From assembly GCA_948444865.1 (NCBI GenBank), contig CAOJVE010000001.1, positions 1,372 through 65,371 on the forward strand: 64,000 bases of DNA, read 5' to 3'. The notes beneath the pieces are model-generated. The model was not told the DNA's origin, searched no databases, and saw only the letters and a program-made list of their open reading frames with translations. Made by a program: the position numbers and the translations under genes. The stretch comes from an uncultured Lachnospiraceae bacterium (GTDB lineage: Bacteria > Bacillota > Clostridia > Lachnospirales > Lachnospiraceae). This document shows, one piece after another, positions 2,267 through 27,405 of this stretch (position 1 is its first letter; each line of letters opens with the position of its first letter).

Positions 2267-3463
2267 CTATTCACCTTCTTTCAGAACGAATTCTTTCAGA
2301 AGCGGAATCCCTCCATATACGCCGGCCAAATAATCTTTTTCAAAAGATGCGTCAGACCGGACTTTGAAATCAGACAGCGCAGTTAATTGAGAATATCCAT
2401 ATTCGTCTTTTTGGACAAACCAAATCTGATCCCTCCGAAAAAACTTTTTGTCCATCAAGGTTGTATCATGGGTGGTATAAATTAATTGCGCCTGGGAATT
2501 ATTATTGTAAAATAAATCTATAATAAATTTTAACAGCAAAGGATGAAGCTTTACATTTAACTCATCCACAAACATAGAACGATCCGTCAAAATTGTGATT
2601 CGCACATATATATACAGCATAATGCTTTTTATGGTTCCCTCTGACTCAAAAAACAGCCCTAAAGGATGCAGTTCTCCATCCTTCCCCAGATGAAACGTCG
2701 TAAACGTCACTTCCTTTTCACGGTCATCGTAAACGATATCCTTTATACCCGAATCAATAGCTTTTAAAAATTCCAACAGTTTTTGTTTCTCCTCGTCTAT
2801 AATATCAGGCAAAAAAGATTCCAATATTCTTGTATCTTCACAAAAATCAGTTGAAACAACCAGCGTATCCATTATTCCTGCATATACACATTTAAAGATT
2901 TTCGTTTTTAATCTTAATTTATTAAAAAAAGACAATGCCAAAGTCTCAACCGGAATCTGCTCTTTATACATCTGACATTCATCCCTCGCCACAGGCCCAA
3001 ATTCCACTGTTTCCGCATTCCTCTCGAAAACAATTGCCTTTCTGTTCGTCCGCAGACTCTTTCTATATAACCATTCTGCTGCGATATGCTCTGCATTGTA
3101 TACAAATCCATAACGATACTCGAACTCTCCCAAGATTTCGACTACTTCAAATTCAGAATTCTCATCCTGATTTTCCTCAAATGAAAACGGTTCATAATAC
3201 CTTTCGATTGCTGTGCTTTTCTCTATGTCATCATTGTTGAATGATTCCATAATAATCGACTGAAAATATTTCATAGCTAACCATAAATTTGATTTTCCGC
3301 TCGCATTCGCTCCATAGATCGCCGCCACCCGAAGAAATTTCTCTTTTGTTCCATTGTCAATCAAATTGCACGCGTGCTCTTTGTATGCGTGAATCGCTGT
3401 CATGTCCAATGTGGTTTCTTCTCTAAACGATAAAACATTTTTCAGCGTAAACTGTACTAACAT
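2267..3463 (-). CDS. ABC-type AAA ATPase (AAA_15/AAA_21, RloA-like)
   Basis: Walker A GANASGKSN, signature-like ESEGT, Walker B FVDEL, HP motif, H-loop TTHD and FRRDQIWFVQK. The sequence is AT-rich. Confidence 0.85.
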   Translation of the reverse strand: MLVQFTLKNVLSFREETTLDMTAIHAYKEHACNLIDNGTKEKFLRVAAIYGANASGKSNLWLAMKYFQSIIMESFNNDDIEKSTAIERYYEPFSFEENQDENSEFEVVEILGEFEYRYGFVYNAEHIAAEWLYRKSLRTNRKAIVFERNAETVEFGPVARDECQMYKEQIPVETLALSFFNKLRLKTKIFKCVYAGIMDTLVVSTDFCEDTRILESFLPDIIDEEKQKLLEFLKAIDSGIKDIVYDDREKEVTFTTFHLGKDGELHPLGLFFESEGTIKSIMLYIYVRITILTDRSMFVDELNVKLHPLLLKFIIDLFYNNNSQAQLIYTTHDTTLMDKKFFRRDQIWFVQKDEYGYSQLTALSDFKVRSDASFEKDYLAGVYGGIPLLKEFVLKEGE

Positions 3464-20985: not shown

Positions 20986-21783
20986 TCAAAAACAGTTTCC
21001 AATCATTTCTTCCAATAATCCCGACAGCCGCTGCGCGCTTCCTCCCAGCGCCCGCACCGCCACATCGCCCCGGTCCGTTCTTGTCACGCCGCCTTCCACG
21101 CCGTCCGCCTCGTCCAGGAGCTTTCGCATCTGGTCTATCCATTCATCTGATCTTGGCACATTGCACAAGACCAGATTTCCCAGATGGGTATATCCCTCGT
21201 ACATGCCCGGGCCGTTCATATCCATCCACCCCGGCTCGTACCGGGTATTGTCCCGGTAAATGATCTTTCCATCCTGCCGGATCGTGACCCGGTTTTGAAA
21301 TCTGCGGTACCCAAACCGCTCCCCATGGGCCGCCCGGCCGCAGGAGAGGATCTCCAGCAGGACGAACTGCGCGTCGTCTCCGAAAAGCTCCGCGTCCAGC
21401 TGGCTGCGGTAGTCAGATCCCTGAAAAGGCATCGTGGGCAAGGGCGTGTAAAACAGGGCCGCGCCAGCCTCCACCTGAATGGACGTCTTTCTGGAGGCAT
21501 ACCCCGCTTCCATCCGGTGGATCTTCTCGTAGGATTGTGAAGTCAGCGCCATCCGTGCGCCCGCATGGACATGGATGCGGAAGTCCTGCCGGTCCCCGGC
21601 CATGATCCCGGCGGAGGCCGCCAGCGCCGTCACGGACATGATCCCTTTTTTTTCGTAAAAAGGACGCATGACCTTATAGGGCGCGGTAAAGGACACATCG
21701 CTTAAGATGGTCTTCCCGTCTTTTACCGAAGCCTCCAAATACAGTCTGGAAGTTTTTCCAAAAGAATTTTCACGATCTTCCAT
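20986..21783 (-). CDS. ureD: Urease accessory protein UreD/UreH
   Basis: APYKVMRPFY, AGIMAGD, TSQSYEKIH and its position after ureG. Confidence 0.9.
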   Translation of the reverse strand: MEDRENSFGKTSRLYLEASVKDGKTILSDVSFTAPYKVMRPFYEKKGIMSVTALAASAGIMAGDRQDFRIHVHAGARMALTSQSYEKIHRMEAGYASRKTSIQVEAGAALFYTPLPTMPFQGSDYRSQLDAELFGDDAQFVLLEILSCGRAAHGERFGYRRFQNRVTIRQDGKIIYRDNTRYEPGWMDMNGPGMYEGYTHLGNLVLCNVPRSDEWIDQMRKLLDEADGVEGGVTRTDRGDVAVRALGGSAQRLSGLLEEMIGNCF

Positions 21784-21787
21784 AGGA

Positions 21788-22396
<609 letters not shown>

Positions 22397-22409
22397 ATCA
22401 AAAAACCTC

Positions 22410-23111
22410 CTATGACATATAGATCCTGGAATACAGTCCCTCGTGCTGCATGCAGCGGATATCAAACCCCGGCGCGGACAGGCACAGGTCTTCCAGGGTC
22501 AGCTCCTCCAACCGGTCCAGGATCTCCGGGAAGATCCCGTGGCTTTTGTACAACAGCCGCTGCCCGTCCGTCTGGCTTAAGGGGATGGTCTTCACGCAGT
22601 TGGTCACCATGGCGGAGGTCTGGGCGAACAGATAGTGGACCATGGCCTCCCCATAGGGGATCCCCGCCGCCGCGCAGAAAACCCCGTAGACGACGGCATG
22701 CTGCGGCGGCCTTTTCCCCAGGCTTTTCCGGTATCTCTGGAAAATATCCGTCTCGTAGGGGATCTCCAGGACGCCCACCGTTTTCATAAAGCGGGAGCCC
22801 AGCTTTTCCCCCGCCTGGCGCACCTCTCTTGGGACCCGGCTGGCTTCCAGCAATCCCTCCAGCTCCAGCAACCTCTCCAGATCCTCTTCCCCGGCATATC
22901 CATAGGCCAGCTTCGCCGCTAGGAATTCACTGTAACAAGATCCGTATGCGAGCCGACTGCGGATATAGTCCCACGCCTCCTTGGCGGATGACGCCAGCCC
23001 TTTTTGGATATACGTCTCCAGCCCGTAGGAGTGGGAGTATGCGCCGATGGGAAACAGCGCGTCGTTCACCTGCAGGAGCAGGAAATATCTGCTCCAGTCT
23101 TCTCTTCTCAT
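22410..23111 (-). CDS. ureF: Urease accessory protein UreF
   Basis: [16 protein letters not shown] and a C-terminal [11 protein letters not shown]. Confidence 0.95.
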
Positions 23112-23123
23112 AATCGCCGTCTC

Positions 23124-23603
23124 CTAATGATGATGATCGTTGACGCTGGAGGAGAGCGCCTGGCCGAAGTCAAAACTCTTTAAGACTTTCTCCCCGGTCA
23201 CCCCGCAGATCCGGTCCACCTTATCCAGCAGCGCCTCATGATACGGCGCGTAAAAGGTATACGCGTCTTCCCCCCGGAACATACTGGTGTGGGTGTTGCC
23301 CACCTCGTAACAAAGCTTGGCGATCTGGTGCGGATGCTCCTTATCCACTGTCATCCGAATGGCCTCGCTGGGCGGAATGCGCACCGCGATCACCTTTTCA
23401 CTGTCCGCGTAAATCACGTCGTTCTGGCGCAGGCCCCTTTTTAGGATCTCGTGGCCCATGCGGATGCCCACGTCCTCCCCCTGCCCGGAGGTCTTCCGGT
23501 GGAGCCGCGTGAAGGCTTCGTGCCACTGGATCTCCACATAGTCCACCGAAAGCCCGGCAAATTTCTCTTCGTACAGACTGCCTAAAATCTTCTCACATAC
23601 CAT
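23124..23603 (-). CDS. ureE: Urease nickel chaperone UreE
   Basis: CYEVGNTH, C-terminal DHHH and operon position. Confidence 0.9.
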   Translation of the reverse strand: MVCEKILGSLYEEKFAGLSVDYVEIQWHEAFTRLHRKTSGQGEDVGIRMGHEILKRGLRQNDVIYADSEKVIAVRIPPSEAIRMTVDKEHPHQIAKLCYEVGNTHTSMFRGEDAYTFYAPYHEALLDKVDRICGVTGEKVLKSFDFGQALSSSVNDHHH

Positions 23604-23646
23604 GATCTCTCTCCTTGATCTCTCTTTTTTGAGTAAACTGAAAAAC

Positions 23647-24153
23647 CTACCATATGCCCAGAAGGAGCATGACTCCCGGGATCCAGGCGGTCACGATCCC
23701 CTCGAAAACCTGCAGGATGGGGACGGATCTCCCCAGCTTGATCCCCATGATGTCCGTCACAAAGGACGAACCCCACAGCACGGCCCACAGCCACCAGATC
23801 GCCGCCCATCTCCAGTCGGGCGAGATATTTAAGGCCGCGCTGCCCGCGACGCCTTCCACATAGCCGAAGACGACCGCGTTGACCGCCACAAAGGTGGAAA
23901 ACCAGGCGAAGGGTTTCCCGTTCAGATCAAAGATGTTCATCACCGCCACGAACAGGTAGGTGAAGCAGAACAAAAGCCCTGTGCCCGCCGCATAATAATT
24001 TCCCTGGACCAGATTTACGAAGTTGATGAACAGAGACAGCCCGCCGGTGAAAATGTTCATGACTGCCGCGGATCTCTTATCCACGTTGGCCAGCGCGCAT
24101 ACGCCATTGTTGATCAGTACGATCCCCACAAATAATAAACAAACGCCTAACAT
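23647..24153 (-). CDS. ureI: UreI/AmiS urea channel
   Basis: MLGVCLLFVGIVLINNG, GTGLLFCFTYL and WWLWAVLW; six hydrophobic segments. Confidence 0.88.
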   Translation of the reverse strand: MLGVCLLFVGIVLINNGVCALANVDKRSAAVMNIFTGGLSLFINFVNLVQGNYYAAGTGLLFCFTYLFVAVMNIFDLNGKPFAWFSTFVAVNAVVFGYVEGVAGSAALNISPDWRWAAIWWLWAVLWGSSFVTDIMGIKLGRSVPILQVFEGIVTAWIPGVMLLLGIW

Positions 24154-24175
24154 ATCCTTCCTCCCAAAATGCGTC

Positions 24176-25897
24176 TTAGAACAAACTGTAAAGCTGGGTG
24201 AGCGGAAGCGTCTCGGCCGGCTTGGATACCAGCTTCACGCCGTCCGCCGTCACCGCGTAAGTCTCCGGGTCCACCTGGATGTCCGGCAGCGCGTCGTTAT
24301 ATTTCATGTGGCGTTTTCCGATGTTCCTGCAATTTTTCACCGGAACCACCGTTTTTTGCAGACCATATTTTTCTTTTACGCCGTTTTCATAGGCCGCTTT
24401 GGAGACAAAAGTGAGGCAGCTCTCATTTTTCGCCATTCCATGAGCTGCGAACATGGGCTGGTACAACACCGGCTGGGTGGTGGGGATGGACGCGTTGGCG
24501 TCTCCCATCTTGGAGGCGATGATCATGCCGCCTTTTATGATCATATCCGGCTTGGCGCCGAAAAAGGCCGGGTCCCACAAGACCAGATCCGCGAATTTTC
24601 CCACTTCCACAGAGCCCACGTAGTCCGCGATCCCGTTGGTGATGGCCGGGTTGATGGTGTATTTGGCCACATAGCGTTTTGCCCGGAAATTGTCGTTGCC
24701 GTTTCCCTCGTCCTCCGGCAGAGGCCCTCTCTCCAGTCTCATCTTATGGGCCGTCTGCCAGGTGCGGGTGATCACCTCGCCGGGCCTTCCCATGGCCTGG
24801 GAATCGGAGCTCATCATGGAGAACACGCCCATATCGTGGAGCACGTCCTCCGCCGCGATGGTCTCCGGGCGGATCCTGGAATCGGCAAACGCGATGTCCT
24901 CCGGGATGTTTTTGTCCAGATGATGGCAGACCATCAGCATGTCCAGGTGTTCGTCCAGAGTGTTCACCGTAAAGGGCATGGTGGGATTGGTGGAGGAGGG
25001 CAGTACGTTCTTCGCCCCCGCCGCCCGGATGATGTCCGGCGCATGGCCGCCTCCGGCTCCTTCCGTGTGAAATGTATGGATGGTCCGCCCGCCGATGGCG
25101 TCCAGCGTGTCTTCCACGCATCCCGCCTCGTTTAAGGTATCGGTATGTATGGCCACTTGTACGTCGTATTCATCGGCCACGTTCAGGCAGTGATGGATGG
25201 CCGCCGGGGTGGAACCGAAGTCTTCGTGGATCTTCATGCCCATGGCGCCCGCCTCGATCTGTTCCGCCAGGGGCTTTTCGTCGGAGCAATTTCCTTTTCC
25301 CATAAATCCCAGATTCATCGGATACTCCTCCGCCGCTTTTAACATCATACGGATGTTCCAGGGGCCCGGCGTGCAGGTGGTGGCGTTGGTGCCGTCCGCC
25401 GGGCCTGTGCCTCCCCCGATCATGGTAGTCACGCCGGAATACAGAGAACAGGGGATCTGCTGGGGCGCGATGAAATGGATGTGGCTGTCGATGCCGCCCG
25501 CGGTGACGATCAGCCCTTCCCCGGCCAGCGCTTCCGTGGACGCTCCGATCGTCATCCCAGGCGTCACTCCGTCCATGATACCGGGGTTCCCGGCTTTTCC
25601 GATCCCGACGATCTTGCCGTCCTTGATCCCGATGTCCGCCTTCACGATCCCCGTGTAGTCCAGGATCAGCGCGTTGGTGATCACCAGATCCAAGTCTCCG
25701 TCTTTGCTGCAGGTCTTCACTGATTGGCCCATGCCGTCACGGATGGTCTTTCCGCCGCCGAATTTTACCTCGTCTCCGTAGATTGTGTAATCTTTTTCCA
25801 CTTCGATGATCAGATCTGTGTCCGCCAAACGTACCTTGTCTCCCACTGTAGGACCGTACATGGCCGCGTATTTTTCACCAGATATTTTATAACTCAT
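24176..25897 (-). CDS. ureC: Urease alpha subunit
   Basis: Ni-ligand motifs [28 protein letters not shown] and SSDSQAMGR. Confidence 0.99.
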
Positions 25898-25924
25898 GTT
25901 TTTTTCGCCTCCTGTCTGAAACTT

Positions 25925-26290
25925 CTATTCCTTGATAAATCCACGTAGCTTCGCGTTCTCTATGGCCTGCGCTTTCGTGGCCGCAGAAGCCTGCATACAG
26001 GTCAGGCCGTTTAAGCCGCAGATCCGGTTGGACCCGCCGTTTTCGGTAAGCCGCACTTCTTTTTCCTCCCCGGGCTCAAAACGGACGGCCGTGCCGGAGG
26101 GGATGTCCAGGTGATATCCGTATGCGGCGGCGCGGTCAAATTCCAGCTGCCGGTTCACTTCAAAGAAGTGAAAATGCGAGCCAACCTGTACGGGCCGGTC
26201 GCCTGTATGTTTCACCAGAAGGGTAACGCACTTTTTTTCTTCATTTAGAATGATCTCCCTGTCTTTGGGGATCACCGCTCCTATCTTCAT
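25925..26290 (-). CDS. ureB: Urease beta subunit
   Basis: [17 protein letters not shown] and [14 protein letters not shown]. Confidence 0.98.
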
Positions 26291-26305
26291 CCTCTTATTC
26301 CTCCT

Positions 26306-26608
26306 CTACTGAATGGGATCATGTACCGTGACCAGTTTCGTGCCATCTGGAAAAGTGGCCTCCACCTGTACTTCGTGGACCATATCCGCCACCCCGTCCA
26401 TTACATCCTCTTTGGTGAGCATTTTTGTTCCCAAAGACATCAGCTCCACCACCGTTTTCCCGTCACGGGCGCATTCCAGCAGTTCGGAACTGATATAGGC
26501 GACGGATTCTACATAATTCAGCCGCAGCCCCCGCTCCTTCCTCTGTTTCGCCAGTTCCCCGGCCATATGAAGCATAAGCTTCTCCTGTTCCTTTGGATTC
26601 AGCCGCAT
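26306..26608 (-). CDS. ureA: Urease gamma subunit
   Basis: [11 protein letters not shown] and [19 protein letters not shown]. Confidence 0.98.
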
Positions 26609-26628
26609 CTATATTCTCCTTTCCCATG

Positions 26629-26728
26629 AAAAAAGGAGCGGACACAGGAAAATTTCTCCCGCATACGCTCCCTTGCGTTGAAGATCAAAAAGAGGTCTGC
26701 GCCGCTATGGGAACAGACCTCTTTGTCT
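26629..26728 (-). promoter_or_regulatory. Urease leader: two tandem intrinsic terminators, each overlapped by an ANTAR-type hexaloop hairpin
   Basis: Hairpins AGAC-AAAGAG-GTCT (26728-26715) and ACGC-AAGGGA-GCGT (26678-26665) both have loop A1/G4. Terminators are AGAGGTCTG/CAGACCTCT-TTTT and GGAGCG/CGCTCC-TTTTTT. Confidence 0.72.
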
Positions 26729-26736
26729 TGGCTTGT

Positions 26737-26765
26737 ATTTTATATGAACTGCATAATTTTGTCAA
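26737..26765 (-). promoter_or_regulatory. SigA promoter of the urease operon
   Basis: TTGACA-17 nt-TAAAAT immediately upstream of the leader. Confidence 0.8.
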
Positions 26766-26854
26766 GTGTTTTTTGTGGCATTCCACTAAATTCTTCAATC
26801 CGCCCATCTTCACGGCGTTTTATCCAAACCAAAAAGGGTTCATCCGCCAGCCTT

Positions 26855-27136
26855 TTATTCCTGGAATAAATCCGCGTGCGTGCCGGTATCCACAAGAGTT
26901 AGCGTCAAAATATCACCCTCGATCAGATAAATCAACAGCCAGTCTGGCTGAATATGACATTCCCTGAATCCGTTCCATTTTCCTTTCAGCGCGTGGTCGT
27001 TGTATTTTCTATCAATTTGAATCCCATTGCCTAATTTCTGAACAACCTCCTTCAACAAAGCTATGTCCAAACCGCGTTTTTGCGCCAGTTTATAATTCCT
27101 TTTGAACTTCCCGCTTCTTTTTACTGTATATTTCAT
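26855..27136 (-). CDS. YafQ/RelE-family mRNA interferase toxin
   Basis: DHALKGKWNGFRECHIQPDWLLIY and TGTHADLF. ATGA overlap with the antitoxin gene. Confidence 0.9.
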   Translation of the reverse strand: MKYTVKRSGKFKRNYKLAQKRGLDIALLKEVVQKLGNGIQIDRKYNDHALKGKWNGFRECHIQPDWLLIYLIEGDILTLTLVDTGTHADLFQE

Positions 27137-27405
27137 GCGTCTAACTCTCTGAACAATTCATCAATATCCGTATAGCCTTTTACATTCGGATCGCGGCTAA
27201 TCCTTTTCGCCTCTTCCATAGCCTCCAAAACTTCCGGCTTGAACTTTGGATATTTCACATCAAAAGGTATCCCGTCATGCAGAACAACCTGTTTCAGAAA
27301 CATATTAATTGCATCCGACAAATTCAAACCCAGCCCTTCTAAAAGTTCCACCGCTTGTTTTTTAGTTGTCTCGTCTATTCTTACTTGCGTTGACACAGTT
27401 GCCAT
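27133..27405 (-). CDS. RelB/DinJ-family antitoxin
   Basis: VRIDETTKKQA...GLNLSDAINMFLKQVV...GIPF ribbon-helix-helix pattern. Confidence 0.9.
   Translation of the reverse strand: MATVSTQVRIDETTKKQAVELLEGLGLNLSDAINMFLKQVVLHDGIPFDVKYPKFKPEVLEAMEEAKRISRDPNVKGYTDIDELFRELDA

Follow-up and report, generated by a model that had tools for sequence, protein, structure and literature searches.

A urease operon of an uncultured Lachnospiraceae bacterium is preceded by a strong promoter and, between that promoter and the first start codon, by two intrinsic terminators in series. The operon lies on the minus strand of the window, the whole stretch of DNA analyzed (64,000 nt; positions 1,372 to 65,371 of contig CAOJVE010000001.1, assembly GCA_948444865.1), and the source organism is a mouse-gut member of the family. 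A preliminary description of the leader, made without database searches, had proposed that each terminator is gated by a hairpin of the kind recognized by ANTAR antitermination proteins.

Anatomy of the urease leader

The urease operon is complete and occupies positions 20986-26608, as delineated by Pfam matches and open reading frames, and its genes follow one another on the minus strand in the order ureA (26608-26306), ureB (26290-25925), ureC (25897-24176), a ureI/amiS-family channel gene (24153-23647), ureE (23603-23124), ureF (23111-22410), ureG (22465-21788) and ureD (21783-20986). Upstream, on the same strand, is a sigma-70-type promoter (26737-26765) with a -35 element TTGACA (26765-26760), a 17 nt spacer and a -10 element TAAAAT (26742-26737), together giving 11 of 12 consensus matches. 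About 1-4 nt past the expected transcription start begins hairpin 1, AGAC-AAAGAG-GUCU (26715-26728), which has a 4 bp stem and a hexaloop with A in the first and G in the fourth position (A1/G4), and which would lie at the transcript's 5' end. The loop and 3' arm of this hairpin also make up the 5' arm of terminator 1 (26687-26724), an 11 bp stem (AAAGAGGUCUG / CAGACCUCUUU) with a 14 nt loop, a U5 run (26691-26687) and a folding energy of -20.9 kcal/mol, so that hairpin 1 and terminator 1 are mutually exclusive. The arrangement is then repeated. Hairpin 2, ACGC-AAGGGA-GCGU (26665-26678), again with a 4 bp stem and an A1/G4 hexaloop, is separated from hairpin 1 by 36 nt containing the complete terminator 1 with its U-run, and the 5' arm of terminator 2 (26629-26674) begins within the loop of hairpin 2. 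Terminator 2 has a long interrupted stem (AAGGGAGCG...CGCUCCUUU), a U6 run (26634-26629) and an energy of -24.9 kcal/mol. The Shine-Dalgarno region GGAAAGGAG and the ureA ATG (26608-26606) follow at 26606-26624, the start codon lying 20 nt from the end of the terminator 2 U-run. The promoter, both hairpins with A1/G4 in their loops, both overlapping terminators and the distance of about 20 nt to ureA had all been noted in the preliminary description, and all were found on the minus strand where it had placed them. Each of the two hairpins is a proposed NitR/ANTAR site.

Both terminators have the G+C-rich stem-loop, directly followed by a U-run, that defines an intrinsic terminator, and both were missed by a simple terminator scan only because its loop limit was 8 nt. 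The urease leader folds more stably than shuffled versions of itself (z = -3.9; 0 of 200 shuffles as good), its centroid structure consists of the two terminators, and it contains two A1/G4 hexaloop hairpins where shuffles give 0.53 on average. In isolation, hairpins 1 and 2 have energies of only -3.3 and -4.6 kcal/mol, respectively. Such hairpins (-2 to -4.6 kcal/mol) are far weaker than the terminators (-17 to -25 kcal/mol), so a stabilizing factor would be needed for them to prevail; when both urease hairpins are enforced during folding, neither terminator forms. A scan of the leader against Rfam (E up to 10) gave chance-level matches only and no curated cis-regulatory family, the best being bglG-cis-reg (17.8 bits, gathering threshold 80) and Thr_leader (17.7 bits, gathering threshold 55), both with E > 2. 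Four public runs labelled RNA-Seq cover the region, and are stored solely as 10.8 kb contigs of flat depth, which yield no 3' ends and show no step at either terminator.

Two congeners with about 90-92% identity (G151 and G152) keep both modules, each module being a hairpin together with its overlapping terminator, and a covariance model finds hairpins 1 and 2 in each of them. These congeners also conserve the promoter, and their hairpin 2 is invariant; the differences, both substitutions and indels, lie in the linker and the terminator loops, or exchange A-U and G.U pairs within stems. Terminator 1 is retained in G151, G152 and G159, with a C-to-U change that leaves its pairing intact, and G.U pairs in the inner stem of terminator 2 have become A-U in the congeners through G-to-A changes. 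In a third species the urease operon itself is gone, and a decayed promoter and module 1 remain beside the same yafQ gene. The tandem arrangement is genus-specific: module 2 is present only in the focal genus and absent from the ureA leaders of other genera. The comparison also bears on attenuation by a leader peptide, as hairpin 2 contains AAGGGAG and then an AUG from which a 21-codon ORF across terminator 2 could start. This candidate was rejected because the AUG is replaced by AUA in both G151 and G152.

The ANTAR gene and the shared hairpin module

The preliminary description had supposed an ANTAR regulator encoded elsewhere. The assembly (2.68 Mb, 224 contigs) contains exactly one match to the ANTAR family PF03861 (67.9 bits, the cut-off being 27.3), on a different contig (C16) and directly downstream of a gene for type I glutamine synthetase. 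Within locus L002, glnA (9449-8118, minus strand) is followed after 28 nt by the ANTAR gene (8089-7559, minus strand) in the same orientation, and this gene order is the same in relatives. The encoded protein is 176 aa long with a C-terminal ANTAR domain (residues 127-173) that aligns with that of EutV, and residues 17-174 align with the receiver-ANTAR protein Rv1626 (PDB 1s8n). Glycine (Gly53) occupies the position of the phospho-acceptor aspartate, and methionine that of the conserved receiver lysine, so the N-terminal domain is a pseudo-receiver. AmiR likewise has a pseudo-receiver N-terminal domain, whereas EutV has a phosphorylatable receiver and NasR a NIT domain. Small size, a receiver-like N-terminus, a C-terminal ANTAR domain and linkage to glnA, the characteristics of NitR-type proteins, were all found, and on the basis of its domains and the glnA-nitR gene arrangement, the sole ANTAR protein of the genome is assigned to the NitR type.

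The same hairpin, fused to a terminator, is present before glnA and amtB, where the preliminary description had suggested looking for it, and also before glnN. In the glnA leader, a TTGACA-17-TATGAT promoter is followed by GGAC-AAAGGC-GUUC, the loop and 3' arm of which open a terminator. An identical hairpin, with its own terminator, precedes glnN (type III glutamine synthetase), and AAGC-AAAGAC-GCUU lies inside a terminator downstream of the glnN stop codon and upstream of an amtB-P-II fusion gene. A strict genome-wide scan was made for hairpins of the form C-[AG]A[AGT]G[AG]N-G, with a stem of at least 3 bp, that overlap a terminator of -14 kcal/mol or better with a U5 run. An overlapping strong terminator was found for 16 of 768 hairpins, five of these 16 lying outside long ORFs, and the only ones that were both outside long ORFs and followed by a gene were urease module 1, urease module 2, glnA and glnN. 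As all of these are nitrogen-assimilation leaders, the module appears to be specific to leaders of this kind.

In the focal glnA, glnN and amtB leaders, the conserved hairpin is followed by further A1/G4 hexaloop hairpins. Those of glnA leaders mostly consist of the terminator 3' arm and the U-tract, and so could not fold before the termination decision is made. A systematic search of relatives' leaders for a conserved second A1/G4 hairpin found none, and a hidden second ANTAR hairpin as a required element was dropped because it is not conserved in these relatives.

Among 151 Lachnospiraceae genomes, ureA is found in 12, and the 11 relatives in this set have one ANTAR gene each. The ureA leaders of ten relatives, from nine other genera, show a promoter, a single hairpin and an overlapping terminator. 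The hairpin consensus is NGAC-[A/G]A[A/U/G]G[G/A]N-GUCN, with stems that vary (GGC/GCC, AAC/GUU, AGA/CUU). The covariance model gave no match at the two most distant ureA loci (G120 and G111). Across 19 hairpins from ure, glnA, glnN and amtB leaders, found in part with a pattern that includes the stem, the 4 bp helix is paired in 89.5% of cells, compared with 73.7% after shuffling (none of 500 shuffles attains the observed figure) and about 40% in slid controls, and 15 cells are changed on both sides of the helix. C-G closes the loop in 18 of the 19; within the hexaloop, A2 and G4 are invariant (G4 in 19/19) and A1 is present in 17/19, giving the consensus AAAGRC.

The module before glnA is common in the Lachnospiraceae and not universal. 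When 80 named Lachnospiraceae glnA-ANTAR loci were searched with the hairpin covariance model, 53 of 72 matches fell within the glnA leader, on the coding strand and 1.43-1.81 kb upstream of the ANTAR gene, an interval that makes up a few percent of the search space; they represent 51 of the 76 loci with enough sequence. At the amtB and glnN loci of relatives, about 27 of 35 covariance-model matches are in leader position. No hairpin was found directly upstream of glnA at four relatives' loci, and in one of these (G042) a plain promoter is located there. An exact 16 nt glnA box occurs in 19 genomes, against 7 control matches, and in 12 genomes it lies about 2 kb upstream of the ANTAR gene. ANTAR genes are present in 135 of the 151 family genomes, and being near universal in the family, their phyletic co-occurrence with the box cannot discriminate.

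Known ANTAR targets and alternative readings

According to Ramesh et al. 2012 (PMC3369931), the ANTAR substrate consists of two A1/G4 hexaloop hairpins, the second of which overlaps a terminator; A1 and G4 were identified as the determinants by mutation for three ANTAR proteins, and ANTAR regulons center on nitrogen genes, including those for urea transporters and urease. The targets of EutV (eutP, Enterococcus faecalis), NasR (nasF, Klebsiella oxytoca) and AmiR (amiE, Pseudomonas aeruginosa) share with the urease leader a stem of at least 3 bp, an A1/G4 hexaloop, mutual exclusion of hairpin and intrinsic terminator, an ANTAR gene in the genome and association with nitrogen-metabolism genes. 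Of the features that define a dual-hairpin site, the hexaloop, the terminator overlap and the ANTAR gene are thus all found here. The known targets have two hairpins 5-12 nt apart, while the urease leader has one hairpin per terminator and, unlike them, carries a hairpin at the very 5' end of the transcript. Its loop consensus (AARGRN, closed by C-G) is also tighter than that of dual-hairpin targets. The preliminary description had called one hairpin per terminator a non-standard double lock; the single hairpin per terminator holds for this leader, but the one-hairpin module is the norm of the family, judging from the ten relatives' urease leaders. The ANTAR interpretation of the urease leader is supported by these sequence comparisons, and the regulator would be of a kind already known in Clostridia.

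NitR of Clostridium saccharobutylicum NCP262 (Stutz et al. 2007, as cited in PMC6316151 and PMC4676874) is reported to be an ANTAR antiterminator that induces GS/GOGAT genes under nitrogen limitation. Like the protein found here, it is small, and its gene follows glnA directly in a genome of the Clostridia; the hosts differ (C. saccharobutylicum against a Lachnospiraceae gut bacterium), urease is not among the targets given in these two sources, and the RNA site is undefined there. The closest precedent for the leader is in Desulfotomaculum carboxydivorans (NC_015565.1), for which Table S2 of Ramesh et al. 2012 (PMC3369931) records RNA matches at 813893-813941 and 813992-814050 before 'Urea transporter genes; urease subunits', so the earlier suggestion that such control was undescribed for a urease operon went too far. 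For D. acetoxidans the same table has paired matches before amtB and nif operons, and for several Clostridia it has glnA with an ANTAR gene. In both D. carboxydivorans and the present genome, two serial ANTAR-type sites (about 100 nt apart in D. carboxydivorans) precede urea-utilization genes and belong to a wider ANTAR nitrogen regulon (glnA, amtB and nif in that case). The differences are that the D. carboxydivorans matches are 49-59 nt dual-hairpin sites, bioinformatic predictions made with a dual-hairpin covariance model, and precede a urea ABC transporter and urease cluster in a Peptococcaceae genome, whereas here single 14 nt hairpins lie directly ahead of ureA. ANTAR control of urea utilization and serial ANTAR attenuators have therefore already been predicted, with dual-hairpin sites; the present leader is a variant of these, with single-hairpin ANTAR-type attenuators, urease as a probable member of the regulon, and a genus-specific tandem arrangement.

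It might be argued that the leader is one stretched dual-hairpin site, with hairpins 1 and 2 serving as P1 and P2 in a single functional unit, both parts of which must be engaged by a NitR dimer. The urease leader does have exactly two A1/G4 hairpins, ANTAR proteins act as dimers with two such hexaloops as their classical substrate, and a transfer of the protein from P1 to P2 in the course of transcription has been proposed by Walshe et al. (PMC8934654). Antitermination by EutV, the one system known in depth, indeed requires both hairpins (PMC8934654). The linker in eut leaders is 5-12 nt, however, with 3 or 14 nt sharply lowering induction (PMC3369931) and a 20 nt extension abolishing antitermination by EutV (PMC8934654), whereas the 36 nt gap here holds an entire terminator and U-run, and each hairpin overlaps a terminator of its own. 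No short-linker tandem was found: the urease hairpins are 36 nt apart, and relatives' ure leaders, like the glnA, glnN and amtB leaders, contain one conserved hairpin with no conserved second. These single-module relatives make a stretched dual site unlikely.

Equally improbable, in our view, is that some other trans-acting factor, such as an RNA-binding protein or small ligand, recognizes the conserved hairpin and that the ANTAR protein beside glnA is unrelated to it. A metabolite aptamer could not be accommodated in 14 nt, and Rfam contains no matching family, while the loop of the hairpin fits the A1 and G4 determinants established by mutation for three ANTAR proteins, with G4 in all 19 hairpins. 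At 51 of the 76 usable loci, the operon encoding the ANTAR protein also carries this hairpin in its own leader. CsrA was considered as a specific binder and discarded, since it needs GGA in the loop, which only 4 of the 19 homologous loops contain (consensus AAAGRC). What speaks for another binder is that co-occurrence carries no information in a family where ANTAR is this widespread, and that the ANTAR domain departs from EutV at several RNA-contact positions, namely Y164->H, N173->D, R175->G and R177->S, a tentative mapping that assumes a numbering offset of +2.

The hairpin sequences could also be read at the DNA level, as a GAC-N6-GTC inverted-repeat operator for a repressor, with the terminators constitutive or incidental. 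The ure, glnA and glnN leaders do have an inverted repeat at about +1 to +20, and in some glnA leaders it is a perfect palindrome, GAAC-N6-GTTC. Yet several stems pair only as RNA, via G.U (GGAC/GUUC, AGGC/GUCU), the conserved loop AAAGRC is strand-asymmetric, and two copies, urease module 2 and that of amtB, lie inside transcripts and distant from promoters; the G.U pairs, the loop asymmetry and the internal copies led us to discard the operator. The stem also covaries while the half-site changes (GGC/GCC, AAC/GUU, AGA/CUU), and every copy overlaps a terminator arm, all of which makes a DNA operator very unlikely.

In Firmicutes, 5'-terminal hairpins can stabilize mRNAs. Such a role, or chance (short A1/G4 hexaloop hairpins are common, with 768 in the genome and 0.5 expected per leader), combined with terminators that damp expression constitutively, is extremely improbable as an account of these leaders, given that the strict scan restricts the module to nitrogen-assimilation leaders, that the hairpin is conserved across genera with covariation, that two of the five module copies are not 5'-terminal, and that a strong promoter followed by terminators of -21 and -25 kcal/mol would leave the operon nearly silent if antitermination did not occur.

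Proposed attenuation mechanism and its implications

We consider it probable that the urease operon is controlled by two independent, protein-dependent attenuators in series, operated by the sole ANTAR protein of the genome. Transcription would start at a strong promoter of constitutive appearance, and control would come after initiation. Each attenuator would consist of a weak 4 bp hairpin with the hexaloop C-AARGRN-G, the loop and 3' arm of which double as the 5' arm of a strong terminator. Left to itself, the leader RNA would fold into the terminators, with transcription stopping at about 26687 and any escaping polymerases at about 26629. When active, presumably under nitrogen limitation, the ANTAR protein would bind and hold each nascent hairpin as it emerges, and a held hairpin would block its terminator and allow RNA polymerase to continue into ureABC-ureI-ureEFGD. 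The same single-hairpin module would gate glnA-nitR (and so provide autoregulation), glnN and amtB-PII, which suggests that urease belongs to a Lachnospiraceae-wide nitrogen-assimilation regulon. If the two urease modules act independently, their arrangement in series would multiply two read-through probabilities, giving a tighter off state and a steeper response, and a tight gate may suit a costly, ammonia-releasing operon of about eight to nine genes.

To our knowledge, antitermination by a single hairpin has never been demonstrated. In the crystal structure of EutV bound to RNA (Walshe et al. 2022, PMC8934654), the ANTAR dimer touches no more than a single hexaloop at once and the G4 base is flipped out, so the one-hairpin reading is structurally plausible. 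The same authors redefined the minimal ANTAR motif as a single hexaloop, raised the question of how common the use of such motifs is, and called for searches for such sites (PMC8934654); the single-hexaloop sites that they discuss (EutX and mycobacterial 5'-UTRs) involve sequestration or translational control and not antitermination at a single hairpin (PMC8934654). A broader proposal can be put forward tentatively, with slightly more doubt than belief on our part. It holds that a single 5'-proximal hexaloop suffices for antitermination by a non-phosphorylatable, pseudo-receiver ANTAR protein, that this is the standard nitrogen switch of Lachnospiraceae (glnA, glnN, amtB-PII and urease), that the two independent modules stacked on the urease leader of this genus form a multiplicative, ultrasensitive gate, and that the activity of the regulator would depend on a protein partner (glutamine synthetase or P-II, for instance) rather than on phosphorylation.

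Walshe et al. 2022 asked why EutV needs two hairpins when the dimer binds one (PMC8934654). A large natural family of one-hairpin attenuators would be a direct system for asking whether one hexaloop suffices, and the urease leader, with two separable modules, would be especially suited to the question. Since dual-hairpin covariance models miss one-hairpin sites, current annotation of ANTAR targets is likely to under-count the regulons of Clostridia. For the gut, the consequence concerns nitrogen: the urease of gut Lachnospiraceae is a main route by which host urea nitrogen returns to the microbiota, and placing urease within a NitR/ANTAR nitrogen regulon, if true, would predict the timing of ammonia release by these bacteria.

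Genes within and beside the urease operon

Directly upstream of the urease promoter lies a RelB antitoxin/YafQ toxin gene pair (window 26855-27405, minus strand), and inside the operon, between ureC and ureE, is a gene for an AmiS/UreI-family channel (window 23647-24153, minus strand). AmiS, the other namesake of this family, is part of the Pseudomonas ami operon, which is controlled by the ANTAR protein AmiR. The ureG ORF as listed (window 21788-22465, minus strand) begins with TTG and overlaps ureF (22410-23111, minus strand) by 56 nt, and the real start of ureG is probably further downstream.

Four public sequencing runs labeled 'METAGENOMIC RNA-Seq' (X6, X7, X8 and X13) were examined over window 25900-27400, which includes the urease leader. 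The region is present on 10.8-kb contigs, and depth is flat over genes and intergenic DNA alike; these runs are DNA-like, or at least uninformative on expression.

A relic of the urease leader is found in G159, a genome of the same genus as the focal bacterium (locus L041, 700-815). The yafQ gene, a decayed promoter (TCTGAT where TTGACA would be expected) and urease module 1, the first hexaloop hairpin, with its terminator are all kept, and this yafQ is the same gene as that by the focal urease promoter. The urease operon itself is missing behind the leader, and an unrelated pseudouridine-synthase-like gene is found there instead.

The ANTAR protein and a candidate nitrogen sensor

The ANTAR domain of P0001, the single ANTAR protein of the focal genome (residues 127-173), was compared with that of EutV (structure 6wsh), with residues mapped under an assumed numbering offset of +2. 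Residues corresponding to K147, K149, E160 and M172 are retained, while Y164 is replaced by His, N173 by Asp, R175 by Gly and R177 by Ser. These substitutions may mean that NitR-type proteins recognize RNA in a different way. Weak matches to the covariance model of the hairpin occur at the same place within the ANTAR coding sequence of three genomes (L057, L061 and L116, position 3011-3028, plus strand); these are probably coincidental, arising from conserved coding sequence. The ammonium transporter of the focal genome (contig C89, about 4960-3210, minus strand) is a 583 aa fusion protein in which an Amt domain (residues 15-413) is joined to a C-terminal P-II domain (residues 470-573). It is a candidate sensor of, or partner for, the nitrogen signal.

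Leaders of glnA and membership of the regulon

In the focal glnA leader, a second A1/G4 hexaloop hairpin (AAAAG-AGCGCC-UUUUU; L002 9490-9474, minus strand) can be folded from the 3' arm of the terminator plus the U-tract, as it can in the glnA leaders of G090 and L055. Roughly half of the glnA leaders inspected have such a hairpin, which exceeds shuffle expectation. Since these hairpins cannot act ahead of the termination decision, they may either arise from terminator complementarity as a by-product or have a role after read-through.

The glnA gene of another relative, G042, lies beside the ANTAR gene, and no attenuator was found in its upstream region (L028 2389-2450), where a plain TTGACA-17-TATAAT promoter leads directly to the SD. 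The urease leader of the same genome, unlike this region, has the module. Regulon membership therefore differs from genus to genus.
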